Under the pieces are notes generated by a model. It was not told the DNA's origin, made no database searches, and was given only the letters and a program-made list of their open reading frames with translations. Shown one piece after another: positions 15,148-58,091 of a stretch of DNA of 64,000 nucleotides. Position 1 is the stretch's first letter, and each line of letters opens with the position of its first letter. The DNA lies in assembly GCA_963710375.1 (NCBI GenBank), contig CAVPZX010000005.1:160001-224000 (forward strand), in the 5' to 3' direction. Both the position numbers and the translations under genes were made by a program. This stretch comes from Nitrospirota bacterium. Lineage in GTDB: Bacteria; Nitrospirota; Thermodesulfovibrionia; Thermodesulfovibrionales; Dissulfurispiraceae.

Positions 15148-15152
15148 GGACG

Positions 15153-15288
15153 AAAGATGGAAGGTGAGAGCGTGAGAAGTTGTGAAGGTGAGAGTAAAAC
15201 AGAAGTTGAGAAGTTGAGAAGTTGTGAGGTTGGGATTTTGCTCATCTTCGCACCTTCGCACCTTCTCACGCTCTCAACTTCCATCTTT
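15153..15288. repeat. Octamer (GAAGTTGA family) hairpin element at the lptE 5' end
   Basis: aaagatggaaggtgagagcgtgagaag... / ...cttctcacgctctcaacttccatcttt. Confidence 0.9.
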
Positions 15289-16146
15289 TGTTTCTGCTGC
15301 ATTCTTTGTTCCGGCTGCGGGTATACCATTCAAACGAGGGCCAACCTTCCCTTTGAGACCATTTCTATCGGCACGATAGAGAATAAAACATCTGAGCCCA
15401 AACTTCAGGACAGGTGTCACGTGGCATTGGCAGAGACCTTTTCCCAACACGGTTACGAGGTAAGCTCCATTGCCCGCTACAGGCTCCAGGGTGAGATATA
15501 CCGGTTCGAGTTGATCCCTACAACCGAAGTGAACCTCGCTGCGACACAATATCAGATCGTGATGAAGGGGAGCTTTAAACTTGTTGATACGGAAAGCGGC
15601 AAATCGATTCCACTTGGGGCGGACAGCCCGTTTATCACTTATTTCAACGCTAACACCACTGACCCGCTCGAGGAAATTATGACACAAAAAGAGCTCGCGG
15701 AGGCCAGCGCTATGGCAAATCTGGCGCAGACGTTAGTCAGCCTTGTTACTTACAATACTCCCAAAAATTTTGCGAGCCTGCTGTTTAAGCCTGACGATAT
15801 AAAAAATGTGGAGGGCCTTATCGTCAAGCTGAGGGATGCAAAAGACCCGCTCTCGGAATATTTACGGGACCAATTTACTCCGGACCTTCAACGCAAAATA
15901 GATGCCTATAACCAGTTCGATTATTCGGCAAAGGAGCTCAAGACTGCACTGGCCAATGCGTTAAACAGTATAATCCAGAACAAGGACATTTTTGATGAAA
16001 AGCGTTTTGCCCATGTCATGCTCAGCGATGAGACCATGCAGCTTATCAGACAGAATGCGCAAGGCGGTAATCGGGTGAAACTCAACCGGATACTTCTTGA
16101 GGAGGCGTATCCGGACGAACTGCAAAAACCGGCAGGCAATAGGTAA
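15157..16146 (+). CDS. lptE: LptE-like LPS assembly lipoprotein with a repeat-encoded N-terminus and an extra C-terminal domain
   Basis: Lipobox-like CSGC followed by GY; ENKT.EP; position directly upstream of holA. Confidence 0.7.
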   Translation: MEGESVRSCEGESKTEVEKLRSCEVGILLIFAPSHLLTLSTSIFCFCCILCSGCGYTIQTRANLPFETISIGTIENKTSEPKLQDRCHVALAETFSQHGYEVSSIARYRLQGEIYRFELIPTTEVNLAATQYQIVMKGSFKLVDTESGKSIPLGADSPFITYFNANTTDPLEEIMTQKELAEASAMANLAQTLVSLVTYNTPKNFASLLFKPDDIKNVEGLIVKLRDAKDPLSEYLRDQFTPDLQRKIDAYNQFDYSAKELKTALANALNSIIQNKDIFDEKRFAHVMLSDETMQLIRQNAQGGNRVKLNRILLEEAYPDELQKPAGNR

Positions 16147-45230: not shown

Positions 45231-47141
45231 ATGTCTAAATCAAAAGAAAAATCAAAAGAAAACCACTCGACAGTAATGCGAAAGGAGATGGCCTCAGAGG
45301 GGACCGCAGACAGTATTGTCGTCCATGAATATCCTTCCGTCGTAGAGTGGTTTAAGACCGTTGCAACCAACATAACCAACAACTGGTTCATTATCGGACT
45401 GGCGATATTCGCGGTATTTGTTGCTTTCATGTTTTATTATCCATCGGTGGGTGGCGACGAAGACATTTGGTTTCATATCAGATATGGATATCACTTTGTC
45501 CATAACATGACATGGAAGATAAACCACGCACAGTTCAACTGGATCCCTTTTGAACCTAATTTCAAGTATGTGACCTGGATAGGAAGCTCCATACTTTATA
45601 TATTCTATGCTCTGATGTCGCATTACGGGCTCTATCTGCTCCAATACATAGTCATAGGCTCTATTGTGGGCTGCTTCCTTTATTTCCTTAAAAAAACAGC
45701 ATACCGCTTCGATATTACAAGTCTGCTGGCAATGCTGGCTGTCCTTCTGGTTTTGAACCTCAAATACCTCTATATCAAGCCGGATATGTTCAGCGGATTG
45801 TTGTTTACCGTTGCCTGCATGCTTTACTATAAGGTCAAGGAAACCGGAAACTGGAGACTGTTTTATGTCTATCCGCCGATGTTCCTCCTCTGGGTTAATA
45901 CTCATGGCGGCTTCATAGTGGGACTATTCTTTATAAGCGCCGCACTCGGATGCGAATTCGTTAATTCCTTCATATTCAGGAATGCGAGACTCGACAACAA
46001 AAGCCTTCTGCATTTTGCGTTAAACGTTGTCCTTAGCTATGCCGTTATCGGTATAAACCCTGAAGGCTATGGCTACTTTACAGGCATAATCAGCGATTTT
46101 TTCTCTCCGGGGATGAAAACGACAGAGGCAATCATAGCTGAATATGGCAGCATGTGGGGCACTCTTTTGCTTAAACCTGCAGGTTTCAGGTTTAAATTTG
46201 CAGCATTTTCAATGCTCGCTATGCTTGTAGTGTTTATCGGAATATGCATTTATCTTATCAAGAAGAAGAAATTCTTTGATATGCCGTCCGTCTTTCTTGT
46301 TGTCTTTTTCTATATCTTTGCAATGTCCATTGTTCGCGCATCCCAATATTATCCCCTTATCTGGTTCTTTGCCTTTTTTTACGTTTATAAGCGGTTCGAT
46401 GCCGTAAAGATCAAAGGCGTCTTCAACTTTATATCCCTGTTAATAATATTCATGTTGTGCTTTAGAATAGTCAATTTGGCGCTTGTTGATTATGACTCGA
46501 TTGCATGGTTTGGCACCAACTGGGAGGAAAGCTACCCTGTCAAGGAAGTGCAATACATAAAGAAGGCGAACCCTCCGGGCAATTTGTGGAATGATTACTT
46601 GACGGGAGGCTATCTCTTATGGGCACTGTATCCCAAATACAAGGTCTTCGTCGATCCGCGCTACGGCGGATACATGGCAAACTTTATGCCCACGGCCGAG
46701 GAGTATAAAGATGCTAAAGGACTGGAGGCGTATACAAAGAGGTTCCCCTTCAAGGTGGCCATCGTGGCTTATCATGAAACTCAGATTATCGAATGGCTTC
46801 TGAAAGCGGATTGGAGGATTGCCTTCCTGGACAAGAACGCCCTGGTAATTGTCAATAAGTCGGTGATCCCCGAGCTGTCGAAAGCTGCCCTGGAAGAGGA
46901 CGTCAGCACCAATAGATTTTTGAATGTCGATAACCCCAACATTCTCAGGACATTGTTTAATTTCTATGTAAACCTTGGTCCAAGTTTCGGAAGGGAGATT
47001 ATAGAAATATACCAGAGGAACGTCAGAACAATCTACAGGAACAGGGATTCCGATCTGAACAACATGCGGAATTTTCTTGAACAGAAAGAGGCCGAGATAG
47101 CTGCGCAGAAAGGCAAAGGCAAGACTGGACAAACAAAATGA
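45231..47141 (+). CDS. Polytopic membrane protein, GT-C-like
   Basis: D.WFH...G, LW.N.HGGF, GGYL.W, FVD.R. Confidence 0.65.
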   Translation: MSKSKEKSKENHSTVMRKEMASEGTADSIVVHEYPSVVEWFKTVATNITNNWFIIGLAIFAVFVAFMFYYPSVGGDEDIWFHIRYGYHFVHNMTWKINHAQFNWIPFEPNFKYVTWIGSSILYIFYALMSHYGLYLLQYIVIGSIVGCFLYFLKKTAYRFDITSLLAMLAVLLVLNLKYLYIKPDMFSGLLFTVACMLYYKVKETGNWRLFYVYPPMFLLWVNTHGGFIVGLFFISAALGCEFVNSFIFRNARLDNKSLLHFALNVVLSYAVIGINPEGYGYFTGIISDFFSPGMKTTEAIIAEYGSMWGTLLLKPAGFRFKFAAFSMLAMLVVFIGICIYLIKKKKFFDMPSVFLVVFFYIFAMSIVRASQYYPLIWFFAFFYVYKRFDAVKIKGVFNFISLLIIFMLCFRIVNLALVDYDSIAWFGTNWEESYPVKEVQYIKKANPPGNLWNDYLTGGYLLWALYPKYKVFVDPRYGGYMANFMPTAEEYKDAKGLEAYTKRFPFKVAIVAYHETQIIEWLLKADWRIAFLDKNALVIVNKSVIPELSKAALEEDVSTNRFLNVDNPNILRTLFNFYVNLGPSFGREIIEIYQRNVRTIYRNRDSDLNNMRNFLEQKEAEIAAQKGKGKTGQTK

Positions 47142-47914
47142 AGGTTGTTATTTTAGCAGGGGGGCTTGGCACACGTCTGAGCGAAGAGACTGATATAAAA
47201 CCCAAGCCGATGGTCGAGATAGGCGGAAAGCCTATCCTCTGGCATATCATGAAGATTTATTCTCACTATGGTTTCAATGATTTCATCATCTGCCTCGGCT
47301 ATAAAGGCTATGTCATAAAGGAATACTTCGCCAACTATTTCCTTCATCAGTCCGATGTTACTATAGATTTGAGCGTCAACAAGCTGGAGGTCCATAACTG
47401 TAAGGCAGAGCCCTGGAGGATTACCCTTATAGAGACAGGATTGAACACGAATACAGGAGGCAGGATAAAGAGAATAAAAGATTATGTCGGCGAAGAGACC
47501 TTTATGCTTACCTACGGAGATGGCGTTGCTGATGTAGATATAGGTGGACTCCTGGAGTTTCACAAATCTCACGACAAGGCAGCTACAATCACCTCAGTTC
47601 AGCCTACTGGCAGATACGGTGCATTGGAACTTGATGAAAAGAGTAGAGTGACAAATTTTCAGGAAAAACCGCAAGGCGATGGGGCGTGGGTAAACGGCGG
47701 CTTTTTTGTATTGGAGCCTGAGGTATTTGATTATATATCCGGGGATGAAATCATATGGGAAAGGGAACCGCTCGAATATTTAGCGAGTCACGGTCAGCTC
47801 GATGCATATAAACACCAGGGATTCTGGAAATGTATGGATACCCTTCGCGACAAGACAGAGTTGGAAACCCTCTGGAGTTCCCGAAACGCACCCTGGAAGA
47901 AATGGAACGACTAA
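47138..47914 (+). CDS. rfbF: Glucose-1-phosphate cytidylyltransferase
   Basis: LAGGLGTRLSEET..PKPM, TGGR, TYGDG, FW.CMDTLRD. Confidence 0.96.
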   Translation: MKVVILAGGLGTRLSEETDIKPKPMVEIGGKPILWHIMKIYSHYGFNDFIICLGYKGYVIKEYFANYFLHQSDVTIDLSVNKLEVHNCKAEPWRITLIETGLNTNTGGRIKRIKDYVGEETFMLTYGDGVADVDIGGLLEFHKSHDKAATITSVQPTGRYGALELDEKSRVTNFQEKPQGDGAWVNGGFFVLEPEVFDYISGDEIIWEREPLEYLASHGQLDAYKHQGFWKCMDTLRDKTELETLWSSRNAPWKKWND

Positions 47915-48028: not shown

Positions 48029-48433
48029 GTGATGGTGGGCAATAGTCAGAAAATAAAAAGTGTTAGGGATTTGGATGTTTATAAGATGGCTTTCAATGCG
48101 GCAATGGACATTTGGCAGATAACAAACGGTTTTCCCAAAGAAGAAAAATATTCTCTTGTAGATCAAATAAGGCGTTCTTCAAGATCTGTATGTTCAAATC
48201 TTGCAGAAGCGTGGCGAAAGAGGCGATATAAAGCCGTGTTCAAGAATAAGTTGACTGATGCTATGCAAGAGGCTTCTGAAACGCAGACATGGCTGGAGTT
48301 CAGTGTTGCTTGTAAATATGTTGATCAAAATAAATTTGATGACTTTGATCAAAAATATGAACATATATTAGCTATGTTGAATAATATGGACTTGAAAGCT
48401 GAATCCTTCTGCTTCTCAACTTCTGATAAATAA
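48029..48433 (+). CDS. Four helix bundle protein (23S rRNA IVP / TIGR02436-like)
   Basis: DL.VY, FP.EE.YSL.DQIRRSSRSV..N.AE.W, E..ET.TWL. Confidence 0.93.
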   Translation: MMVGNSQKIKSVRDLDVYKMAFNAAMDIWQITNGFPKEEKYSLVDQIRRSSRSVCSNLAEAWRKRRYKAVFKNKLTDAMQEASETQTWLEFSVACKYVDQNKFDDFDQKYEHILAMLNNMDLKAESFCFSTSDK

Positions 48434-49638
48434 TGTTTAGGGACGTATATAGAGGTAAGCAAGTATTAATCACTGGTCACACGGGATTCAAAGGCTCTTG
48501 GCTTGCCCTGTGGCTCAGAGAGTTAGGAGCGAATATAATCGGTTATTCCCTTGATCCACCTACAAACCCCAATCATTTTGATTTGCTAGCCTCTTCTCAG
48601 GTTCTCACCTTCTCATCTTCTCAACTTCCCAACTTCATCTCTATTTTCGGAGATATACGGGATGTAAAGAAGCTGAATCAGACCTTTCAGAACTATAAGC
48701 CTGATATAGTCTTCCACCTCGCTGCACAACCTCTCGTCAGGTATTCATATAAACATCCGCTCGATACATTTGAGACAAATGTGATAGGGACAATAAATGT
48801 TCTTGAAGCTTGCAGACAGACTGAATCAGTCAGGGCAGTAGTAAATATAACGAGCGACAAGTGCTATGAAAACAAAGAATGGGTATGGGGCTATCGTGAG
48901 AGTGACCCGTTTGGCGGTTACGACCCCTACAGCGCATCAAAAAGTTGCGCAGAGCTTGTGACTAACTGTTACAGGCGCTCTTTCTTTATAACTGAAACTG
49001 AGAAGTTGAGAAGGTGTGAAGGTGAGAGTAAAGCCGAAGGACTCACAACTTCTCAACTTCTCAACTTCACAACTTCAGTCCTTTTAGCCAGCGCAAGAGC
49101 GGGCAATGTCATAGGCGGCGGAGATTGGGCAGCGGACAGATTGATTCCCGACATTATGAGGGCGGTCAGCCGGAATAAGAAGGTTGTTATCAGAAATCCC
49201 AAGTCAACCCGTCCCTGGCAGCATGTGCTGGAGCCGTTGTCAGGTTATCTGGCGCTTGGGCAGAAGCTCTTGGAAGGGAAATCGGAATTTGCCGATGGGT
49301 GGAATTTTGGGCCTGATGATGAAAGCAACATATGTGTTGAAGAAGTTGCAGAAAAGATGACCAGCTTCTGGCATAAAATTGGTTACCAACGCAAACCATT
49401 TAAACATCCAAGCCTCCGGCCATCCGACCCTCATGAGGCTGGTCTGTTAAAACTTGACTGCTCGAAAGCCCATTCAAGGCTTGAGTGGAAACCTGTCTGG
49501 GATATTAAGAAAACGCTTGTAATGACCGCTCAATGGTATAAAGAGTTTTACGAACGTGATGGAATAATGAGTCAGAAGGATTTGGATGAGTATATTCTGA
49601 ATGCGAAGGAAAAAGGTTTGCGTTGGGCAGTTGATTGA
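48433..49638 (+). CDS. rfbG: CDP-glucose 4,6-dehydratase with in-frame repeat inserts
   Basis: TGHTGFKGSWL, HLAAQPLV, YSASK, RAGNVIGGGDW, RPWQHVLEP. Confidence 0.96.
   Translation: MFRDVYRGKQVLITGHTGFKGSWLALWLRELGANIIGYSLDPPTNPNHFDLLASSQVLTFSSSQLPNFISIFGDIRDVKKLNQTFQNYKPDIVFHLAAQPLVRYSYKHPLDTFETNVIGTINVLEACRQTESVRAVVNITSDKCYENKEWVWGYRESDPFGGYDPYSASKSCAELVTNCYRRSFFITETEKLRRCEGESKAEGLTTSQLLNFTTSVLLASARAGNVIGGGDWAADRLIPDIMRAVSRNKKVVIRNPKSTRPWQHVLEPLSGYLALGQKLLEGKSEFADGWNFGPDDESNICVEEVAEKMTSFWHKIGYQRKPFKHPSLRPSDPHEAGLLKLDCSKAHSRLEWKPVWDIKKTLVMTAQWYKEFYERDGIMSQKDLDEYILNAKEKGLRWAVD
48591..48636. repeat. Single octamer arm in frame in rfbG (SSQVLTFSSSQLPNF)
   Basis: tcaggttc tcaccttc tcatcttc tcaacttc ccaacttc. 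Confidence 0.9.
48991..49079. repeat. Octamer hairpin in frame in rfbG (TETEKLRRCEGE..TTSQLLNFTTS)
   Basis: actgaaactgagaagttgagaaggtgtgaaggtgagagt / actcacaacttctcaacttctcaacttcacaacttcagt. Confidence 0.95.
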
Positions 49639-49662
49639 GCAGGTTTGTCGGAAGACTCCTAC

Positions 49663-51108
49663 ATGGAAAGAAGAGAACAACTAAAACAGGAAATATTTGA
49701 GAGAATAAGGGCATTTTATCAGCTTGTGCATGAGACATCCCACAATGCAGAGTTTGTTGCAGGCAAAAGTCGCATAAACTATGCAGGCCGGGTATTTGAT
49801 GAAGAAGAGATGATTAATCTTGTCGATAGTTCCCTTGATTTCTGGCTTACAACAGGCAAATATGCCGAAAGGTTTGAAAAAGAATTTGCAGATTTCCTTG
49901 GAGTGAAATATTGCTCTCTTGTCAATTCAGGGTCTTCAGCTAATCTCCTCGCGTTTATGGCGTTAACATCTCCGAAGCTCGGTGATAGAAGCATTCAGAG
50001 GGGCAATGAGGTCATAACAGTAGCAGCAGGTTTCCCAACCACAGTCGCTCCCATCATTCAGTATGGCGCTGTGCCGGTATTTGTTGATGTTACGCTGCCG
50101 GCATACAACATAGATTGTTCGCAGCTCGAAAATGCACTATCAGATAAAACAAAGGCTGTAATGGTCGCGCATACCCTCGGCAATCCCTTCGATATCCGGA
50201 CGGTAAAAACGTTCTGCGATAAACATAATCTCTGGCTCATCGAGGATAACTGCGACGCTCTTGGCAGTAAATACCGAAGGTGGGAAGTTGAGAAGGTGAG
50301 AAGTTGTGAACGTGAGAAGGCAGGCCCAACTTCACAACTTCACAACTTCCCACCTTCGGAGCTTTACGGCTACACCGGGACTTTCGGGCATATTGGAACG
50401 TCGAGTTTTTATCCGCCCCATCATATGACTATGGGAGAAGGCGGCGCTGTTTATACGAACGATATTCAGCTCAAAGGGATAATAGATTCTTTCCGTGACT
50501 GGGGCAGGGACTGCTGGTGTGTGTCGGGTAAAGACGATACATGCAAAAAACGCTTTAAATGGCAGCTCGGAGAACTTCCTTACGGATATGATCACAAATA
50601 TATCTATTCCCATTTCGGGTATAACTTAAAGGTTACCGACATGCAGGCGGCTATAGGCTGTGCGCAACTCGAAAAGCTGCCCTTTTTTATTGAAGCAAGA
50701 AAGAAAAACTGGAGTCTTCTGAGGGACGGGCTGCATGACCTTTCAGATAAGTTTATCCTGCCTGAGCCTACTGCGAATTCAGAGCCATCCTGGTTTGGGT
50801 TCCTGTTGACTGTGAAGGAGAGCGCGGGTTTTACGAGGGATGAGATAGTGAATTATCTTGAATCAAATAACATCCAGACACGTATGCTCTTTGCAGGAAA
50901 TATACTGAAGCATCCCTGCTTCGATGAAATGAGAAAAACCGGCCACGGTTTCCGTGTCATTAGGGACTTACCGGTAACTGACCGCATAATGCGCGACAGT
51001 TTTTGGGTTGGGGTCTATCCGGGGATGAAAGAAGAGGCGATCGAATATGTCATGCAAAAGATAAAAGAGTATGCAAGACATGAACAATCGATTCCCGGTT
51101 TAGGGTAA
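49663..51108 (+). CDS. rfbH: CDP-4-keto-6-deoxyglucose 3-dehydrase (RfbH/DdhC) with an in-frame repeat insert
   Basis: NSGSSANL, EDNCDALG, SFYPPHH.T.GEGG (His in place of the PLP Lys), RDCWC..G.D.TC. Confidence 0.95.
   Translation: MERREQLKQEIFERIRAFYQLVHETSHNAEFVAGKSRINYAGRVFDEEEMINLVDSSLDFWLTTGKYAERFEKEFADFLGVKYCSLVNSGSSANLLAFMALTSPKLGDRSIQRGNEVITVAAGFPTTVAPIIQYGAVPVFVDVTLPAYNIDCSQLENALSDKTKAVMVAHTLGNPFDIRTVKTFCDKHNLWLIEDNCDALGSKYRRWEVEKVRSCEREKAGPTSQLHNFPPSELYGYTGTFGHIGTSSFYPPHHMTMGEGGAVYTNDIQLKGIIDSFRDWGRDCWCVSGKDDTCKKRFKWQLGELPYGYDHKYIYSHFGYNLKVTDMQAAIGCAQLEKLPFFIEARKKNWSLLRDGLHDLSDKFILPEPTANSEPSWFGFLLTVKESAGFTRDEIVNYLESNNIQTRMLFAGNILKHPCFDEMRKTGHGFRVIRDLPVTDRIMRDSFWVGVYPGMKEEAIEYVMQKIKEYARHEQSIPGLG
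50274..50359. repeat. Octamer hairpin in frame in rfbH
   Basis: ccgaaggtgggaagttg... / ...caacttcccaccttcgg; outer 17 bp perfectly complementary. Confidence 0.95.
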
Positions 51109-53199
51109 TATTTCATTCAGCAATTGCCGGGTTTTTTGGTCATCCGGCTTTATCTTTAACCTTGTCATCAATTGAATGCGCGCATTTTCTATAATATCCG
51201 GTCTCAGGCGCAGGGCAGTTTCGAATTCATTTTTGGCCTTGTCAAGTCTGTCGCTGTCGTAATAAACAAGGCCAAGATTAAAATGTGCTTCTGCGTAATC
51301 GGGCGCAAGTTTAATGGCAATCAGATACTGCTCAATAGATTTGTCAGGCATGTTGATGGCATGATAGGCAATGCCGAGATTATTATGTGCCTCAGCATAA
51401 TCAGGCTTGAGTTTAATGGCAATGATATATTGCTCAATAGCATTGTCAAGCATGTTGCGACTTTTATAAAAATTACCAAGTCTGGCATGTGCATTTGCGT
51501 AACGGGGGAATCTTTTAACTGTATCTTCCCACATTTTTTTGCTGTCTCCATATAGATTGTTCTGCAAATGAGCTGCGACTGACAGAATGCTTATAATAAG
51601 GGCGAGCGTCACTAGTATCACATTGCCGGCTTTCTGTGAACGAATTTTTTCTTTCAGCAGAAATACCCCCGTAACTGTGCAAATGATTACCCCGACCGAG
51701 GGCAGATACATTCGATACGTTTCAATAAGCCTCGGCGTAGGTATAATGCTCGATTCAACTGAAAGGGTGATAAAGAACCACAATATACCGAAACCCATCA
51801 AACGAAAAGCAGGACTAAGGGCAGAGGACTGAGAGGCGAGGACTGAGGACTGAGGACTGAGAGACGAGGACTGAGAGGCGAGGACTGAGGACTGAGGACT
51901 GAGAGACGAGGACTGAGAGGCGAGGACTGAGTTTTCGTCTTCGCGCTTTGCCCTCAGTCCTTTGCCCTTAGTCCTCAGTCCTGGACCCTCTTCCTTTGGC
52001 CCTTTCCACTCAGTCCTCAGTCCTTCGCCCTCAGTCCTCAGTCCTCGCCTCTCTTTTTTCTGCACTAAATAAATCCCCAGTCCAAATAGCGCTGAGAGAA
52101 ACACAAATGAAACGGATACCTGCGGTTGAAAAAAAGACTTAAACACAGGGTACTCATAATTGAGTTCCAGGTTTGCCGGGAAAAACAGCATTCGCAGGTA
52201 AGTGACAATGACCCTGAACTGGGTGAAAAAATACTCTCCCCGCGAGTAGTCCCAGGTGAATCCGGCCATATATGAGCCCGGGTCAATAAGGCTGGGATTA
52301 ATCAGTTGTGTGCCGCGTACTTCGGTCACTGTCGGCATGCTCATAATAGTCAGAGGTATGATGCAAAGTGAAAGCAATAATGGAGCAAGAACGAGCATCC
52401 TCTTCTTAATGCCGCCATTAAAAAAACAAAACTCGTACAACGTTATCACAAAGGGCAGAGTAAACGCATTCTCCTTTGTTTTCATTGCCAGGACCGCTGA
52501 AAGAAGGGATATGGCGTACATAGTCCGGCGCCGGGCTTTATGATGGTCAGGAGCCTCCAATCTGAACTTAATATATGCTGTGAGGGAAAGGAGATAGAAA
52601 AAAGCGGCGAGAGAGGCATAACGTTGCATGACATACGTAACCGCCGCTGTCTGCAGCGGGTGGACGGCAAACAGAGCGGCGGAGAAGAAGGCAATCACTG
52701 CCGGATTGCCTGAACTTGAGAAATTGAGAACTTGTGAAGGTGTGCCCTTTGCCCTATGCCCTATGCCTTTCATGTAAGGTGTTCTGAATGTCAATAGAAC
52801 AAGCAAATAAACCAGGATTGTATTGGCGATATGAATGGCAATATTGACAATATGGTAGCCGGTCACCGATAAACCGTTTATACGGTAGTTGAGCGCAAAG
52901 GTGAGATGCGAGATGTAGCGGGATATGAAAAAACGGTAATTCTCAAACCCTTGAGCTGTTGAGGGGTGAAGGAAATAATTAAGGTCCTTGATAATAGGCT
53001 CGTTAACAATATGCATCTCTTCATCCCACTGAAATGGGACATTCAAGGCATTGGAGTAAATGATCAGAATAAGCAGAGACAGACAAGCGATATGCACAAA
53101 GGAGTTATATGTCAATGACAGCGGACTGAACGATGCATGTGCAGGGGGAAGGTCATTGTGACGGATCAGCTTATTTGTTTTCTTACCCTTGTTTTTCAT
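51100..53199 (-). CDS. TMTC-like GT-C + TPR protein, paralog 2
   Basis: Same motifs as 26326-28050; TPRs. Confidence 0.75.
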   Translation of the reverse strand: MKNKGKKTNKLIRHNDLPPAHASFSPLSLTYNSFVHIACLSLLILIIYSNALNVPFQWDEEMHIVNEPIIKDLNYFLHPSTAQGFENYRFFISRYISHLTFALNYRINGLSVTGYHIVNIAIHIANTILVYLLVLLTFRTPYMKGIGHRAKGTPSQVLNFSSSGNPAVIAFFSAALFAVHPLQTAAVTYVMQRYASLAAFFYLLSLTAYIKFRLEAPDHHKARRRTMYAISLLSAVLAMKTKENAFTLPFVITLYEFCFFNGGIKKRMLVLAPLLLSLCIIPLTIMSMPTVTEVRGTQLINPSLIDPGSYMAGFTWDYSRGEYFFTQFRVIVTYLRMLFFPANLELNYEYPVFKSFFQPQVSVSFVFLSALFGLGIYLVQKKERRGLRTEGEGLRTEWKGPKEEGPGLRTKGKGLRAKREDENSVLASQSSSLSPQSSVLASQSSSLSPQSSVLASQSSALSPAFRLMGFGILWFFITLSVESSIIPTPRLIETYRMYLPSVGVIICTVTGVFLLKEKIRSQKAGNVILVTLALIISILSVAAHLQNNLYGDSKKMWEDTVKRFPRYANAHARLGNFYKSRNMLDNAIEQYIIAIKLKPDYAEAHNNLGIAYHAINMPDKSIEQYLIAIKLAPDYAEAHFNLGLVYYDSDRLDKAKNEFETALRLRPDIIENARIQLMTRLKIKPDDQKTRQLLNEILP
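51811..52053. repeat. Heptamer (GGACTGA) hairpin in frame in paralog 2
   Basis: (ggactga)n ... (tcagtcc)n; encodes GLRTE.. and SPQSSVL.. Confidence 0.95.
52712..52767. repeat. Composite octamer + heptamer insert in frame in paralog 2
   Basis: gaacttga gaaattga gaacttgt gaaggtgt followed by gcccttt gccctat gccctat gcc. Confidence 0.85.
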
Positions 53200-54285
53200 A
53201 AAAGATCCCTGACCGTTTCAGCGTGAGATTGCATTCAATAACTGACGGGCTATCTGGTCATCAGGCTTTATCTTTAATCTCGCTATCAACTCTCTGCGCG
53301 CATTTTCCAGTTGTCCCATATTATAGTAGAGGACTCCGAGATTAAAATGAGCTGTTTCATTATCCGGTTGGAGGCGTATGACAGTTTGTAATTCATTCAC
53401 GGCCTTGTCAGGCATGTTGAGGGACTGATAAAGAATAGCGAGATTATTGTGCGCTTCCACATAGTTGGGCTTCTCCTGTATTGCGGCCAGATAGTGTTCA
53501 GTTGCCTTGCCAGACATGCCCTGATCTTTATAGACATTGGCTAGATTATAATGCGCCTCAGGGTAATCAGGCTTCAGATTAATGGCAGTCTGAAACTCTT
53601 TTATAGCCTTGTCAGGCATGTTGAGGGCCTGATAAACAGCTCCCAGATTATTATACGCTTCTATAAAATCGGGTTTTAGATTAATGGCAGTCAGAAACTC
53701 TTTTATAGCCTTGTCAGGCATTTTGAGGGCCTGATCATAGAGGACGCCAAGATTGTAATGCGCCTTCCAGTGCCCAGGGGCAAGACTTATTGCAGTCAGA
53801 TATTCCTTTAAAGCAGCATCGGGCATACCGAGGTCTTGATAGCTGTTGCCGAGACCGAGATGCGCTTCAGTGGAATCAGGATTAATTTTCAAGGCAAGCT
53901 GAAACTGTTCCGCAGCCTTGTCCGACATGCGATGGTGTCGGTAGGCCAACCCAAGATTATAATGCACTCTTTCTTTTGCAGGGAATTTTAACGCGTCTTC
54001 TTTCCATAACTTGACTTCGTCTCTCCACATATCATTGCGCATATATGTAGCAACTGACAGTACGCCTGCAGCAAGTGCAAGAATGGTTACTATCACCCTA
54101 CCGGCTTTTGGGGAACGCAGATTTTCTTTCAGCAGAAATGCACCGGTAACAACGCAAACAAATATCCCCATTGAAGGCAGATACACGCGGTGTTCAAAAA
54201 TCACATCGGCGATGGGTATGATGCTCGACTCCACTGAGAGAGTGATGAAAAACCACAATATCCCGAAACCCATCAACTTAAAGGC

Positions 54286-54556
54286 AGGACTGAGGGCAGA
54301 GGACTGAGAGGCGAGGACTGAGGACTGAGGACTGAGTGCCAAGGACTGAGAGACGAGGGCAGAGGACTGAGGACTGAGAGACAAGGACTGAGAGGCGAGG
54401 ACTGAGGACTGAGTGTCAAGGACTGAGGACTGAGCAGAGAGGACTGAGTTTTGGTCTTCGATCTTTGCACTCAATCCTCTGCCCTCAGTCCTCAGTCCTG
54501 GATCCTCTTTCCTTTGGCCCTTTCCACTCAGTCCTCAGTCCTCTGTCCTCAGTCCT
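54286..54556. repeat. Heptamer (GGACTGA) hairpin in paralog 3
   Basis: (ggactga)n ... (tcagtcc)n. Confidence 0.95.
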
Positions 54557-55036
54557 TGTTTTTTTCTCGCTCCACAGCACTAAATAAATGCCCAGCCCGA
54601 AAAGCGCGGCAAGAAACATAAACGAAAAGATCACCTGGGGGTAAAAGAAAGATCTATAAATAGGATAGTCATAGTCGACATTCTGTCCTGCGGGGAAAAA
54701 CAGCAGCCGCATATATCTCACAATTACTGAGAACTCCGTCATCAGGTATTGCCATGGCGTCGTCCTTGTCTGCACTGTTATCTTGCTCGCATCCGACAAT
54801 ACTTTCCCCAACGGCTGGCTCACATTCAGCAAGCTCAAAGGAATGATGACCACTGTTGCCAGCAGCGGCAAGGCCCATAGAGCCCTCCTGAGCAGATTGC
54901 CTCTGCCGAAGAACACCAGTTCGTACAACACAACAATAAACGGCAGTGTAAAGGCTATCTCCTTTGTCATCATCGCAAGCACAGCCGAAACAATAGAAAT
55001 CCCATAATAAAAATATGGCATGTATTTTCGTTTTTC

Positions 55037-55310
55037 CCGGCTACCGGCCACCGGCCCCTGGCCACTGTCTTTTGCTTCTTGCCCTCCGCCCTCAGTCCTC
55101 AGTCCTTGGTCCTCTGCCCTCAGTCCTCGCCTCTCAGTCCTCAGTCCTTGGTCCTCTGCCCTCAGTCCTCTGCTCTCAGTCCTCAGTCCTTGGTCCTCCG
55201 CCCTCAGTCCTCGCCTCTCAGTCCTCAGTCCTTGGTCCTCTGCCCTCAGTCCTCGCCTCTCAGTCCTCAGTCCTCTGCCCTCAGTCCTTGTTTTATTACC
55301 CTCAGTCCTT
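55037..55310. repeat. Heptamer array with a 42-bp higher-order unit, in frame in paralog 3
   Basis: ctcagtcctcagtccttggtcctctgccctcagtcctcgcct repeated about 4 times (GLRTERRGLRAEDQ), next to ccggcta ccggcca ccggccc ctggcca. Confidence 0.95.
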
Positions 55311-55454
55311 GACTTTATATATGTCACTAATGAAAGGAGATAAAAAAATGAAGCGAGGGACGCAAGCCTCTGCACTATATAAGTGACCGCCTGAGTTTGG
55401 ATAGGATGCACCGCAAACAAGACAGCAGAGAAGAAGGCGATCAGCCCGGAATCG

Positions 55455-55520
55455 CTGAGTACTAAAGACTGAGGACTTAGGACTGAGGGCATAGGACTGA
55501 GGACTGAGGACTGAGGACTC
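55455..55520. repeat. Heptamer arm in frame in paralog 3
   Basis: Encodes SPQSSVLSPMPSVLSPQSLVLS. Confidence 0.9.
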
Positions 55521-55841
55521 ATGGCCGGTGTTCTGAATGTAAATAGCACAAATAAATAAACCAGCATGGAGTTAGCAATATGAATTGCAAGATTGACTAT
55601 ATGGTAGCCGGTCACATTTGAACCACCCAAGCTGTAGTTCAGGGAAAATGTCAGATACCCGATGAATCGTCTAGAAAAATGTTCATACCCTGTGGAACTG
55701 AACAGAAAATTTCCGATATGACGCACTATACTGTTATCAATTATGTTGAATTCATCGTCAAATACAAACGGCGCATGAAAAGTATTAGAATAACAAATCA
55801 GGCATAATAGAGCTATAATGCCGGCATGTAAGAGCTGGGAA

Positions 55842-58091
55842 TTATGATTTTGATTTGGAAATTTCATTCAGCAACTGTCGGACATTTTGGTCGTTAGGTT
55901 TTATCCTTAATATCGTTGTCAATTCCCTGCGTGCCTTTTCTTTCTGTCCCCTCTCATAATAGAGTTCTCCAAGATTGGAATGCGCCTCTATATAATCGGG
56001 CTTCAGTTTAATGGCAATCAGATAATATTCTATGGCCTTGTCGGGCATTTTCTGGTCTTCATAGATTACGCCAAGATTATTATACGCCTCTGCGCAGTCA
56101 GGCTTTAGTTTAACAGCAATCAGATACTCTTTTAAAGCCCTTCCACGCATGCTGCGGGACTGATAAAACACGCCACCCAGATCAAGATGGGCCTCCACAT
56201 AATCAGGCCTCAGTTCTACGGCAGTCATAAACTCTTTTATAGCTTTCTCGGGCATTTTACGATCTTTATATATATTGCCAAGGTTATAATGTGCCTCAGG
56301 TAAGTCCGGATTAAGCTTGGAAGCAATCATAAACTGCTCAATCGCCTTGTCAGGCATATTACGGTCTCGGTAGATAACCCCGAGGTTATTGTATTCCTCT
56401 GCAGAATCAGGTTTCAGCCCAATGGCAATCCGGTACTGCTCTATGGCTTCATCGAACTTTTTTTGAGACTGATAGAGGCGACCAAGATTATAATGCGCCC
56501 TTTCCTTGGCAGGTGATTTTGCCACGACGTCTTTCCACAGTCTTATACTGTCTCCCCACACTTCGTTCCGCAGATACGTAGCGACCGACAAAACTCCTAT
56601 AGCAAGGGCCAGCATCAAGATTATTACCCTGCCGTACCTGGGCGAACGCACCTTTTCTATTAACAAAAAGGCCCCTGTAACTGTACAAATAATCATTCCT
56701 ATTGAAGGCAGATAAGCACGGTGCTCGTAAATTACATCAGTGATAGGTATTATGCTTGACTCGACCGAAAGAGTGATAAAAAACCACAATATACCAAAAC
56801 CCATCAAACGAAAAGCAGGACTGAGAGGCGAGGACTGAGAGGCGAGGACTGAGGACTGAGCAGTTAGGACTGAGTTTTGGTCTTCGCGCTTTGCACTCAG
56901 TCCTTTGACCTCAGTCCTCAGTCCTGGACCCTCTTCCTTTGGCCCTTTCCACTCAGTCCTCAGTCCTCTGTCCTCAGTCCTTGCTTTATTACCCTCAGTC
57001 CTCAGTCCTTGGTCCTTCGTCTTCAGCACTAAATAAATGCCCAGCCCGAAAAGCGTCACCAGAAACAGAAGCGACAGCATCACCTGGGGATAGAAGAAAG
57101 ATCTATACACCGGATAGTCATAATCGAGGTTCTGCCCTGCAGGGAAAAACAGCAGCCGCACATACGTCACGATCACAGTGAACTCTGTTATCAGATACTG
57201 CCACCGCGTCATGCTTGTTCCCGCCGCAGTCACCTGATTCACATCCGACAACACCTTCCCCAACTGTTGGCCCACATTCAGCATGCTCAGTGGAATGATG
57301 ACCACTGTTGCCAGCAGCGGTAAGGCCCATAGCGTCCTCTTAATCAGATTGCCTCTGCCGAAAAACACCAACTCGTAAATCACAATGATAAACGGCAGCG
57401 TAAAGGCTATCTCCTTTGTCTTCATCGCCAGCACCGCAGAGATAATAGAGATGCTGTAGAAGAAGAGATACCGGAAGTTGCCCTTTGCCCCGCCTGAGGC
57501 GGGCCCTCTGCCCTCTGCTATTAGCCTGAACCGAACATAAAAGTACAACGAGGCAACATAAAACAAAGCTGCCAAAGACGCAAGCCGCTGCACTATGTAT
57601 GTCACTGCCTCGGTTTGGATAGGATGCACCACAAATAACGCGGCAGAAAAAAAGGCAATCAGATTAGAATTTCTGAGGACCGAGGACTGAGGACTGAGAG
57701 GCAAGGACTGAGGACTGAGAGACGAGGACTGAGGGTTCATTAACGGAGTCCTGAATGTAAGCACCACCAATCCATAAACCAGAAGCGCACAGGCCAGATG
57801 TATGGCAAGATTTACTACATGGTAGCCGGTCACATCAAGGCCGCCCAAGCGGTAGTTCAGGGCGAATGTCAGAAACCCTATAAAACGGCGGGGATTATTT
57901 TCATATCCTTTGGAGCTGAAGATAAAATTGCCGATATCATGGACTACCCTGTTATCCCTTATAGAGTATTCGTCGTCAAATATAAACGGCACATGGAAAC
58001 TGTTGGAATAGACGATTATTCCTGCCAAAATTATCAGGAAGGGATAAAAAAAATGATGGGCCGTTGCTGAATTCTTTGCCTTCCGAAACAT
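55842..58091 (-). CDS. TMTC-like GT-C + TPR protein, paralog 4
   Basis: FDD, YH..N..IH, HP.QTEAV.Y..QR, EHR.YLP, multiple TPRs. Confidence 0.78.
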   Translation of the reverse strand: MFRKAKNSATAHHFFYPFLIILAGIIVYSNSFHVPFIFDDEYSIRDNRVVHDIGNFIFSSKGYENNPRRFIGFLTFALNYRLGGLDVTGYHVVNLAIHLACALLVYGLVVLTFRTPLMNPQSSSLSPQSLPLSPQSSVLRNSNLIAFFSAALFVVHPIQTEAVTYIVQRLASLAALFYVASLYFYVRFRLIAEGRGPASGGAKGNFRYLFFYSISIISAVLAMKTKEIAFTLPFIIVIYELVFFGRGNLIKRTLWALPLLATVVIIPLSMLNVGQQLGKVLSDVNQVTAAGTSMTRWQYLITEFTVIVTYVRLLFFPAGQNLDYDYPVYRSFFYPQVMLSLLFLVTLFGLGIYLVLKTKDQGLRTEGNKARTEDRGLRTEWKGPKEEGPGLRTEVKGLSAKREDQNSVLTAQSSVLASQSSPLSPAFRLMGFGILWFFITLSVESSIIPITDVIYEHRAYLPSIGMIICTVTGAFLLIEKVRSPRYGRVIILMLALAIGVLSVATYLRNEVWGDSIRLWKDVVAKSPAKERAHYNLGRLYQSQKKFDEAIEQYRIAIGLKPDSAEEYNNLGVIYRDRNMPDKAIEQFMIASKLNPDLPEAHYNLGNIYKDRKMPEKAIKEFMTAVELRPDYVEAHLDLGGVFYQSRSMRGRALKEYLIAVKLKPDCAEAYNNLGVIYEDQKMPDKAIEYYLIAIKLKPDYIEAHSNLGELYYERGQKEKARRELTTILRIKPNDQNVRQLLNEISKSKS
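56817..57030. repeat. Heptamer (GGACTGA) hairpin in frame in paralog 4
   Basis: Same site and loop as 51811-52053. Confidence 0.93.
57673..57734. repeat. Heptamer arm in frame in paralog 4
   Basis: Encodes PQSSSLSPQSLPLSPQSSVL. Confidence 0.9.

Follow-up and report, generated by a model that had tools for sequence, protein, structure and literature searches.

An in-frame tandem-word hairpin, probably translated and tolerated, in the rfbH gene of a Nitrospirota bacterium

The rfb locus and its in-frame hairpins

The window (the whole 64,000-nucleotide stretch of a Nitrospirota genome analysed here) contains a CDP-dideoxyhexose gene cluster in which rfbF, rfbG and rfbH are encoded on the forward strand (table 1). 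The open reading frame of rfbH, delimited mechanically, begins at a TTG codon at 49645, and the database protein (P0001) begins at the ATG at 49663. Translation of the longer frame (49645..51108) reads EDNCDALGSKY, followed by RRWEVEKVRSCEREKAGPTSQLHNFPPSELYG and then by YTGTFG. Most of the segment between the two motifs is encoded by an 86-nt hairpin, the subject of this analysis.

Table 1. Genes and repeat features of the rfb locus, numbered from the first letter of the window.
Feature	Position	Strand	Basis and remarks
rfbF (glucose-1-phosphate cytidylyltransferase)	47138..47914	+	TIGR02623, 449.4 bits (cut-off 300.25); first gene of the CDP-dideoxyhexose cluster
rfbG (CDP-glucose 4,6-dehydratase)	48433..49638	+	TIGR02622, 489.1 bits (cut-off 278.45); directly upstream of rfbH
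rfbG half element, pyrimidine arm only	48593..48636	+	TRF, 5.5 octamer copies; near the N-terminus, in frame, SSQVLTFSSSQLPNF
rfbG full octamer-word hairpin	48991..49079	+	In frame; 39-nt arms, 82% complementary; peptide includes TETEKLRRCEGESKAEGLTTSQLLNFTTS
rfbH (CDP-6-deoxy-L-threo-D-glycero-4-hexulose-3-dehydrase, E1)	49663..51108	+	ORF, Pfam, NCBIfam, PDB, AF2 model
rfbH hairpin, 5′ arm, purine-rich	50274..50306	+	Tandem octamers of type GAAGNTGN; word run extends to 50320
rfbH insert	50275..50370	+	32 codons, RRWEVEKVRSCEREKAGPTSQLHNFPPSELYG
rfbH hairpin, inter-arm segment	50307..50326	+	20 nt; part degenerate words with partial pairing, remainder loop
rfbH hairpin, 3′ arm, pyrimidine-rich	50327..50359	+	Tandem octamers of type NCANCTTC, the complement of GAAGNTGN

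A preliminary description of this DNA had placed a hairpin at 50274..50359, with arms that pair over 33 bp with three mismatches, and both the pairing and the fold bear this out. The two 33-nt arms, 20 nt apart, form 30 of 33 possible pairs (91% complementary, 3 mismatches), and the RNA fold of 50264–50369 reaches −51.5 kcal/mol against a shuffle mean of −25.0 (s.d. 3.4; z −7.78), none of 200 dinucleotide shuffles being as stable. The pattern of a 25-nt arm has only two matches across the 64,000-nt window, namely the two arms, where 100 shuffles give an expectation of 0. Tandem-repeat analysis (TRF) resolves the 5′ side into 5.6 copies of period 8 (50276–50320) and the 3′ side into 3.9 copies of the same period (50327–50357). 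The inserted peptide had been read correctly overall, except that the residues LY before GYTGTFG were omitted. The insert is a multiple of three nucleotides in length and contains no stop codon in frame, while its two other reading frames have 1 and 3. A terminator scan detected no terminator-like tail at the rfbH hairpin, and an Rfam scan of 48300–53300 (E ≤ 1) returned no family at its gathering score, introns included; the only matches were sub-threshold ones to eukaryotic miRNA-precursor models, the one at 50274–50359 scoring 36.6 bits where the gathering score is 97.

The neighbouring rfbG contains two elements from the word family of the rfbH insert, both of them in frame. The full hairpin has counterparts in the congeners G003 and G002, whose rfbG genes carry inserts at the same site. 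The half element is represented in the word scan by a reverse arm at C5:208589. The octamer build of the arms, the similar inserts in neighbouring genes and the genome-wide class to which the hairpin belongs, with members at the same position in related genomes, all go beyond the preliminary description.

The enzyme, its relatives and the site of insertion

RfbH matches the Pfam family DegT_DnrJ_EryC1 (9.1e-89), passes the RfbH equivalog model NF011936 of NCBIfam with 744.9 bits (cut-off 423) and aligns to the E1 structure 3bcx with an E value of 4e-157. Against 3bcx and 3bb8, the latter an H220K mutant of E1, query residues 4–204 correspond to chain residues 3–200 and query residues 238–470 to chain residues 205–432, so that 33 residues of RfbH face four in the solved enzyme. 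The earlier statement that only a few residues separate the flanking motifs therefore holds, with four in the solved E1 and seven or three in most homologues at the point where the insert replaces them. The active-site histidine (His220 of E1, at the position of the aminotransferase lysine) is kept, ‘sfypphh’ standing against ‘sfypahh’ in 3bcx and ‘sfypakh’ in 3bb8, and the near-invariant columns of the homologue alignment, His253, Cys197, Cys284, Cys286 and Cys294, are retained. E1 has four cysteines in the pattern C..C-x-C-x7-C, which we take to be the proposed ligands of a [2Fe-2S] cluster. The insert, which starts eight residues past the Cys197 column, stretches the distance between the first two of these putative ligands to 87 residues in RfbH, against 58 in E1.

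The preliminary description had named alignment to orthologues and structural modelling as checks; the first shows a site that varies in length, and the second preserves the fold of the enzyme. The AF2 model of RfbH has a mean pLDDT of 94.8 and superposes on 3bcx_A with a TMt of 0.97 and an rmsd of 1.6 Å at 49% identity. As modelled, the E1 fold is kept and the insert is an excursion from it. Strands are predicted at residues 203–205 and 235–237 on either side of the insert, across which 10-residue blocks average pLDDT 83 and 77, while residues 207–219, the peptide of the 5′ arm, are predicted to be helical with a pLDDT of about 80. This helix could mark a structured, and possibly functional, addition instead of a floppy loop. 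Judging from the length variation and the secondary structure of the model, the insert would sit at the tip of a surface β-hairpin.

Inserts occur at the same codon in three congeners, each of them in frame. Measured over an empty form of 60 nt, they add 117 nt in G001, 60 nt in G003 and 63 nt in G002, compared with 87 nt in the present genome (G000). The four share the outer words GAAGG...CCTTC and differ otherwise in length and in their words. In G009, and in four genomes that are more distant, the turn has three or seven residues. Of the 120 closest homologues in the protein database, the 103 that could be parsed, a count biased towards intact ORFs, have seven residues at the site in 70 cases, three residues in 3 and 9–46 word-like residues in 30. 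A background sample of 140 wider loci, parsed from 160 among the matches listed and mostly relatives at 54–73% identity, has three residues in 36, seven in 102, eight in 1 and a 41-residue insert in 1. This 41-residue insert belongs to an Elusimicrobiota MAG and has a word hairpin of its own (−55 kcal/mol). Insert-free variants of the site measure 3, 7, 8 or 18 residues. According to the preliminary description, long non-repeat loops common among orthologues would speak against its account, as would relaxed selection on the gene; such loops prove to be rare, the 18-residue non-repeat loop being confined to one genus.

The closest insert-bearing homologues, P0002 and P0003, are 92% and 88% identical to RfbH, and insert-bearing rfbH is found in at least four species. 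With the insert columns excluded from the tree, the G000 protein falls in a clade of 14 of which 12 bear an insert, and the state of the insert needs at least 13 changes overall, at least six of them forced by well-supported branches. A single origin of all inserts is rejected because the tree requires these six or more well-supported changes. The hairpin is degraded in several relatives. G002 still has a 24-residue insert, although most of its 5′ arm is gone (fold −21 kcal/mol, z −2.4), while in G003 pairing is limited to the outer stem, where changed words on both arms still pair over about 14 bp. In P0014–16, P0022 and P0017, judged from their peptides, only a half resembling the purine arm or only a half resembling the pyrimidine arm is left. 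Assembled contigs from two further samples (X4 record 13 and X5 record 21) span the insert without any indel, although rare variants are hidden in such contigs; one low-depth contig of a relative has 26 nt where this locus has 98, and the assembled contigs of samples X1 and X3 give only short repeat cross-matches to the locus.

Six-frame searches of genomes, which cover few genomes, provide the only counts free of the bias towards intact ORFs. They yield eight inserts in five genomes (five in rfbH, three in rfbG), all with a length that is a multiple of three and with no in-frame stop codon, against 9 and 22 stops in the other frames. Across 378 ungapped codons of the rfbH core, dN/dS is 0.044–0.077 at a dS of 0.7–2.1, values from which the core of the enzyme is seen to be under strong purifying selection; the relaxed selection mentioned above is not what these ratios show. 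The fold of the hairpin has a z of −4.4 to −6.9 in six of the eight inserts, and the complementarity of the arms remains high (z −4.8 to −6.9) in G000, G001 and the rfbG copies despite a dS of 0.7–1.2.

A genome-wide class of word hairpins

Scanning the whole genome for the GAAGNTGN and NCANCTTC words gives 27 forward and 24 reverse arms, where the reversed genome, used as a control, gives one of each. The arms form 25 pairs in the order forward then reverse and none in the opposite order, so the purine arm always comes first, and 10 of the 27 forward arms fall within the 64-kb window. More broadly, periodic arms are present in 102 of the 236 hairpins of the genome, with a period of 7 nt in 68, 8 nt in 13, 6 nt in 11 and 12 nt in 10. 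When a long open frame is required to extend at least 60 codons to either side, 6 of 101 periodic hairpins lie inside one, against 1083 of 2000 random 100-nt segments; tandem-word hairpins are strongly depleted from coding sequence. A nearby paralogous membrane/TPR gene is split into two ORFs inside a heptamer hairpin array of its own.

The elements have the features by which a tandem-word hairpin is defined here, namely arms of at least three units of 6–9 nt with a complementary run nearby, dispersed through the genome and mainly non-coding. Each copy of the octamer family has its own word order, its own loop and its own length, and what the copies share is the 8-nt word pattern. No fixed consensus, transposase or target-site duplication came to light, with no clear duplication at the rfbH borders, and the copies compared have no conserved termini beyond the words. 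MITEs are recognized by fixed terminal inverted repeats, by the duplication of their target site and by a transposase-bearing autonomous relative; here the inverted repeat is the whole element, and a scan for word arms 200–3000 nt apart returned mainly cross-matches between adjacent hairpins. The proposition that each genome holds a single word family was rejected, since G003 holds both GAAGNTGN (70 matches) and GAGGGTCA (102 matches).

Readings of the rfbH insert and known counterparts

The insert is best read as a translated, tolerated and fast-evolving repeat insertion that behaves like the palindromic elements of Rickettsia. On this sequence-based reading, one of the genome's own tandem-word hairpins lies in frame in an intact rfbH and is probably translated into an extra, tolerated loop of about 25–29 residues, at what we infer to be a surface β-hairpin tip. 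A tolerated surface loop was one of two options offered in the preliminary description, and it is the one supported by the frame, by selection, by length variation and by the AF2 model; the other, removal or bypass at the RNA level, is disfavoured. The element would have arrived in an ancestor common to the 14 homologues of the clade in which the G000 protein falls, and may have survived in the RfbH turn because this turn is among the few spots where the enzyme accepts added residues. It appears to have been remodelled quickly since then, through the gain and loss of words and through exchange with other copies, while selection would purge any version with a frame shift or a stop. The hairpin would be a property of the repeat, and rfbH probably does not need the hairpin itself, since relatives retain a coding insert after the loss of most of one arm.

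The lasting pairing of the arms counts against this reading. Synonymous sites between these genomes are nearly saturated and the pairing persists; therefore something renews or selects it, as a neutral passenger should have decayed. The hairpin might be kept as a nucleic-acid structure in the rfb operon, with the peptide a by-product, and could act as an mRNA stabiliser or processing site, as a DNA cruciform, or as a pause site, for transcription or for translation, that separates the cofactor-binding N-terminal part of the enzyme from its His/Fe-S part. Such a role would account for folds far beyond those of shuffles, both here and in six of the eight inserts, for pairing that persists at a dS of 0.7–1.2, and for the G003 arms that have both changed their words and still pair. 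It would also fit the same repeats at gene ends elsewhere in the genome and the hairpin in rfbG upstream, given which the operon mRNA would carry several. However, G002 and G003 have intact, in-frame genes with a weak fold and with an outer stem only, respectively, and a single arm is apparently left in some homologues. The insert is absent from 73 of the 103 close homologues and, among the matches listed, from 139 of the 140 broader ones, the hairpin lacks both a terminator-like tail and an Rfam family above gathering score, and slippage or arm-to-arm copying would preserve complementarity without any function. We consider a nucleic-acid role rather improbable. Renewal would be the theme of another account, a self-renewing coding hairpin, in which the sequence at one fixed codon, in rfbH and likewise in rfbG, is repeatedly rewritten with the word family currently active in the genome and the arms are re-copied from each other. 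This idea is tentative and unlikely; if true, the repeat class would itself generate surface loops that change fast on conserved enzymes, and the process would amount to templated diversification, unlike transposition or classical slippage.

Surface-polysaccharide genes are a classic setting for phase variation, and rfbH acts in a surface-polysaccharide pathway. The insert could on these grounds be a contingency switch, in which slippage by a single 8-nt word would shift the reading frame and so switch RfbH, and with it a dideoxyhexose surface sugar, off or on; phase variation by simple sequence repeats (SSRs) is outlined in PMC4692102. A unit not divisible by three suits a switch, as do two identical adjacent words in the 3′ arm, the clustering of the forward GAAGNTGN-word arms in the window and the membrane/TPR paralogue split within its heptamer hairpin array. 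Against this, all inserts from the six-frame search are in frame (5/5 in rfbH, 3/3 in rfbG), the contigs of two more samples, though they would hide rare variants, have the same length and no indels, and the lengths that separate species (87, 117, 60 and 63 nt) are not multiples of eight. The words are also imperfect, with at most two or three identical neighbours, and slippage should therefore be rare, while the TPR paralogue is split in its inter-arm spacer by what resembles a 1-nt indel, not a word slip. A switch is thus distinctly improbable. Removal of the insert, by intron-like excision or by a bypass of the T4 gene 60 type, would leave a short canonical turn in the mature enzyme, and a strong hairpin does stand at the start of the segment, with TAC (Tyr) codons flanking the insert at 50272–50274 and 50371–50373. 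Bypass of the T4 type needs a stop after the take-off codon together with matched take-off and landing codons; here the first TAC is followed by CGA (Arg), and no stop interrupts the frame. Removal at the RNA level is disfavoured because a removed sequence would need neither an open frame nor a length divisible by three, and all eight inserts have both, against 9 and 22 stops in the other frames. As no Rfam model, for introns or anything else, is matched at gathering score, and as a hop from TAC to TAC would leave a turn shorter than in any homologue, we regard removal as very improbable indeed. Least credible is the view of rfbH as a decaying pseudogene and of the insert as damage. An insertion between conserved motifs, close in sequence to active-site residues, might suggest it, but the ORF is full length, with a dN/dS of 0.044–0.077, an equivalog score well clear of its cut-off (744.9 against 423 bits), the catalytic histidine and cysteine columns retained and a mean pLDDT of 94.8 in the AF2 model, and insert-bearing rfbH persists in at least four species. 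As far as sequence can tell, the pseudogene reading is refuted.

To our knowledge, in-frame ‘coding palindromes’ are textbook matter for Rickettsia only. A translated and tolerated word hairpin in rfbH would extend this behaviour to Nitrospirota and to a poorly described class of elements, whose arms are tandem words of 6–8 nt. With 30 or more inserts, each worded differently, at a single codon of a well-understood enzyme of solved structure, and at least six gains or losses on the tree, the locus offers a natural series that could show the amount of foreign sequence that a PLP-fold enzyme accepts here, how arms stay complementary while synonymous sites saturate, and how fast proteins acquire new peptide segments. 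For annotation, such inserts are not to be taken for pseudogenisation, introns or assembly errors. In the openly accessible literature searched, there was no description of a word-hairpin class in Nitrospirota or of octamer SSR hairpins inside genes.

The closest parallel in behaviour is found in the Rickettsia palindromic elements (RPEs; Ogata et al. 2000/2002, as summarised in passages of PMC10969869), which are about 150 bp long and form families, each conserved both in sequence and in the peptide that it encodes. Like the insert described here, RPEs are short palindromes, normally non-coding, that lie in frame in unrelated metabolic genes and are read through as peptide, and passages of the same summary judge the peptide compatible with the fold of the host protein and place the elements at the same sites in related species (PMC10969869). 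The rfbH element shares with them an in-frame palindrome in a conserved gene whose host protein is kept, and lacks the family consensus and peptide of an RPE. It has no fixed consensus, each copy having a private arrangement of octamers and a private loop, its orthologous copies change words and peptides between species, and it belongs to Nitrospirota, whereas RPEs belong to Alphaproteobacteria; kinship in sequence between the two would not be expected. The element works like an RPE and is not one.

In their build, the arms recall the inverted pairs of heptamer SSRs in Xanthomonas (GGGAATC) and Nostoc (Rehm et al. 2015, PMC4692102). Passages of that study depict tandem words of 7–8 nt in about four units, often in convergent stem-loop pairs, which are dispersed, mostly intergenic, under-represented in coding sequence and different between close species, all as here; intragenic repeats make up 11% and 7% in two xanthomonads and more in Nostoc (PMC4692102). 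The same passages stress G-quadruplex potential and intergenic regulation, whereas the words here are not G4-prone, and in-frame insertions at a conserved site of an enzyme, as seen here, are not described for Xanthomonas or Nostoc in them (PMC4692102). The TAACTGA repeats of marine Beggiatoaceae (MacGregor 2015, PMC4679880) are likewise 7-nt words repeated in large numbers, chiefly between genes and less often in ORFs, but in the passages concerned they are direct repeats upstream of genes, with one inverted set, and not hairpins in enzyme cores (PMC4679880). Coding palindromes of Nematomorpha mitochondria, as portrayed in PMC6649704, resemble the rfbH insert as long inverted repeats in coding sequence with both arms translated; these palindromes of animal mitochondria are perfect, much longer and not composed of short tandem words (PMC6649704).

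A tandem-word hairpin within rfbH

The hairpin that the preliminary description had placed within an RfbH gene is a real, biological feature. Its two 33-nt arms are 91% complementary and separated by a 20-nt spacer, and a 25-nt arm pattern matches only these arms within the window (0 expected, 100 shuffles). The RNA fold of positions 50264-50369 is -51.5 kcal/mol; 200 dinucleotide-shuffled sequences average -25.0 ± 3.4 (z -7.8), and no shuffle is as stable. The product of the surrounding open reading frame matches Pfam DegT_DnrJ_EryC1 (9.1e-89) and the NCBIfam RfbH equivalog (744.9 bits, cut-off 423), and its translation across the hairpin reads EDNCDALGSKY - RRWEVEKVRSCEREKAGPTSQLHNFPPSELYG - YTGTFG. 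Among solved structures the E1 dehydrase 3bcx/3bb8 is closest (E 4e-157), and query residues 4-204 align with chain residues 3-200 and 238-470 with 205-432; 33 RfbH residues therefore replace 4 in solved E1, and the earlier statement that only a few residues separate these motifs holds.

Positions of genes and repeats in the window
Feature	Position	Strand	Remarks
Double octamer-word hairpin	15150-15291		overlaps mechanical start of ORF 15157..16146 (+, 329 aa, no Pfam match)
rfbF	47138..47914		
rfbG	48433..49638	+	directly upstream of rfbH; TIGR02622 489 bits vs 278
rfbG half element	48593-48636		pyrimidine arm only, in frame
rfbG full octamer-word hairpin	48991-49079		in frame; 39-nt arms, 82% complementary; same words as rfbH hairpin
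rfbH	49645..51108	+	
rfbH hairpin arms	50274-50306, 50327-50359		
Second RfbH site, near C-terminus	about 50950-50990		empty
TPR/membrane paralogues	51100..53199, 55842..58091	-	
GAGGACT arrays in these paralogues	51811-52053, 52712-52767, 55083-55519, 56817-57009, 57673-57734		
Middle TPR/membrane paralogue, split into two ORFs	53218..54474, 54485..55867	-	break inside GAGGACT array 54286-54559

Tandem Repeats Finder assigns both arms a period of 8 (5.6 copies at 50276-50320, 3.9 at 50327-50357); GAAGNTGN words follow one another along the 5′ arm, and their complement NCANCTTC does so along the 3′ arm. Searching the genome in full (3.19 Mb, 9 contigs, 47% G+C) for these words gave forward arms at 27 places and reverse arms at 24, where the reversed-sequence control gave 1 of each. 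Arms no more than 120 nt apart were paired forward-then-reverse in 25 cases and never in the opposite order, and 10 of the 27 forward arms fall in the window, spanning 15150-52767 (175160-212712 of the contig). Word order and loop are private to each copy, and no fixed consensus was found among the octamer-word copies of this genome. The hairpin belongs to a repeat class built from short words: a word-independent scan recovered 236 hairpins, and in 102 the arms are periodic (68 of period 7, 13 of period 8, 11 of period 6 and 10 of period 12). These periodic hairpins avoid coding sequence, since 6 of 101 lie in open frames (at least 60 codons open on each side) compared with 1083 of 2000 random 100-nt segments, in a scan that misses some copies, such as the rfbG hairpin, which is absent from the six.

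Recurrence of inserts at the rfbH site

Inserts recur at this site of rfbH. Among the 120 best homologues (68-100% identity), 103 could be parsed: 70 have a turn of seven residues (FYKGEWK-like), three have three residues and 30 have 9-46 residues. The first half of these 30 long inserts is charged and Gly/Trp-rich and the second half rich in Pro, Ser, Thr, Leu and Gln, as from translated word hairpins. Across 301 genomes sampled evenly from the order, 25 rfbH loci were obtained and 21 parsed, with word-type inserts in two (our genome and a congener, G001), 18 residues in three, seven in 11 and three in five. Long non-repeat loops are not common among orthologues; the 18-residue loop, conserved and non-repeat, is confined to one genus (3 of the 21 parsed loci). 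Of 160 loci among the matches listed, from many phyla, 140 were parsed, with turns of three (36), seven (102), eight (1) and 41 residues (1). The last is an in-frame insert in an Elusimicrobiota MAG (JBAXKK010000035.1) with a tandem-word hairpin of its own (-55 kcal/mol); the different words and different phylum point to independent colonisation.

On a FastTree phylogeny of the 103 RfbH proteins, built with the insert columns left out, insert state changes at least 13 times, and at least six changes are forced by well-supported branches; the site has therefore gained inserts on several occasions, in separate lineages. Our genome belongs to a supported clade in which 12 of 14 proteins have an insert. 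The other two have three-residue turns, the outgroups a seven-residue turn, a pattern compatible with secondary deletion, and a single old insertion, later rewritten, is the simplest history for this clade. Of 66 homologues parsed at a second RfbH site near the C-terminus (GFRV...LPVTDR), 17 have more than five residues; the inserts there, among homologues P0003-P0067, are mostly Pro/Ser-rich pyrimidine-arm peptides.

Forty related genomes were searched in six frames and the rfbH site was extracted; three congeners (G001, G002 and G003) carry an insert at exactly the codon used in our genome (G000). All four are in frame and share the outermost GAAGG...CCTTC words, while inner words, loops and stability vary, so that each genome has its own wording of the orthologous insert.

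Orthologous rfbH inserts in four congeneric genomes, with length gained over the 60-nt empty form
Genome	Gain (nt)	Insert	Fold (kcal/mol)
G000	+87	RRWEVEKVRSCEREKAGPTSQLHNFPPSELYG	-52
G001	+117	RRCEREKTEGVNLRRCEGEQKTACDNFAPSHLRTFAPSEFYC	-52
G003	+60	RRLEGQRVSRPPAFQPSSPPTFR	-34
G002	+63	KRWENAEVGAPSQLHNFSPSAIYG	-21

In a fifth congener, G009, the turn is DGQ, and four more distant genomes have turns of three or seven residues. The full-hairpin site in rfbG holds differently worded inserts in G003 and G002 and a short pyrimidine-arm-like remnant in G009. Both G003 inserts contain the word GAGGGTCA, which matches 102 times in that genome and four times, nearly, in G001, with no match in G000, G002 or G009. 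The GAAGNTGN family gives 93 matches in G000, 140 in G001, 75 in G002 and 70 in G003 (controls 0); G009, with its empty site, gives three in a genome just 84% complete.

Several further observations concern these loci. The GAGGGTCA word is dense around rfbH of G003 (1.59-1.61 Mb of its contig C2), like GAAGNTGN in the window. The rfbH frame of G001 and G002 extends about 120-150 residues further upstream; at 588-602 aa, these proteins bear a precomputed PF02452 domain, and the rfbG-rfbH gap is about 0.6 kb there against 6 nt in G000. A low-depth contig of a relative from a further sample (record 24) shows 17 differences in 148 nt over 50373-50520; 26 other letters replace 50274-50373, a 72-nt difference that keeps the frame.

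Reading of the insert and rival explanations

The RfbH enzyme is under constraint. Insert-bearing rfbH genes compared with G009 over 378 ungapped codons give dN/dS of 0.044-0.077 (dS 0.7-2.1), and the protein retains the catalytic His (253) and Cys197, 284, 286 and 294, which hardly vary across an alignment of 81 sequences. An AlphaFold2 model from the same alignment predicts an intact fold (mean pLDDT 94.8, pTM 0.93; TMt 0.97 and rmsd 1.6 Å on 3bcx_A), in which the insert sits between strands 203-205 and 235-237, a helix spans residues 207-219 and 10-residue blocks over the insert average pLDDT 83 and 77. All eight inserts from genomic DNA (five rfbH, three rfbG) are multiples of three in length, with no stop in the reading frame and 9 and 22 in the other frames; contigs from two further samples span the rfbH insert at unchanged length. 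Given this purifying selection, the kept catalytic residues, the intact model and the stop-free inserts, relaxed selection on a pseudogene is scarcely credible. The preliminary description had also offered a tolerated surface loop or a segment removed or bypassed at the RNA level; open frame, constraint and fold better support the former, and the latter is very improbable, as the frame is open, no stop follows the first TAC and no Rfam family reaches its gathering score in a scan of 48300-53300. In G000, three TGAs arising from A-ending words are all out of frame, and only one word has its final TGN in frame, where the last base is T and the codon TGT (Cys), whereas an A would make a stop; this placement is expected under selection for read-through and is not required by RNA-level removal.

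We consider it probable that a copy of the word-hairpin repeat was inserted in a β-hairpin turn of RfbH, between the strand ending in EDNCDALGSKY and the strand leading to the catalytic His, and is translated as an additional, presumably surface-exposed loop that the enzyme tolerates. The insert would evolve quickly, words being gained, lost and exchanged with other copies, and selection would eliminate versions that are out of frame or bear stops. The arms remain complementary in several genomes despite near-saturated synonymous sites, so a purely passive passenger fits poorly; pairing is either renewed mechanically (by slippage and arm-to-arm copying, or by conversion from other copies) or selected. 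Its persistence would suit a function as RNA or DNA structure, which is nevertheless unlikely: G002 and G003 count against it, as do homologues that, to judge from their peptides, have just one arm left. More doubtful still is a switch that shifts frame through 8-nt slippage: the unit length, a gene of a surface-sugar pathway and a split TPR/membrane paralogue nearby speak for it, but no out-of-frame alleles were seen and the words are imperfect.

The translated loop invites comparison with known repeats. Rickettsia palindromic elements behave similarly, as described in an excerpt of PMC10969869, but the rfbH insert lacks a conserved element sequence or peptide and so stands outside that family; by analogy, it may be regarded as such behaviour shown by a tandem-word hairpin repeat. 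In excerpts, Xanthomonas and Nostoc have inverted heptamer repeats of the same architecture (PMC4692102), and Beggiatoaceae heptamers show a looser likeness (PMC4679880); unlike the case of rfbH, these excerpts report no in-frame insertions at a conserved site in enzyme cores. Coding palindromes also occur in Nematomorpha mitochondria (excerpt of PMC6649704). Our literature search returned no description of such repeats in Nitrospirota, nor of octamer SSR hairpins inside genes. What is notable here is the repeated colonisation of one RfbH codon and the rewording of the orthologous insert in each genome.

Neighbouring genes and other repeats

Downstream of rfbH, on the minus strand, the heptamer GAGGACT and its complement form large in-frame arrays in the genes of three paralogous membrane-plus-TPR proteins. 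The arrays occupy corresponding positions across the paralogues and encode peptides such as GLRTEGEGLRTE... and ...SVLASQSSSLSPQSS. In the split paralogue the frame change falls in the spacer between array arms; this gene could be a frameshifted pseudogene, a repeat assembly error or an off state. Elsewhere in the window, octamer hairpins occupy the gaps between housekeeping genes, several by DsbD-like, holA-like, nth and tgt genes. Where the double hairpin overlaps an ORF, the actual start codon probably lies beyond the repeat.
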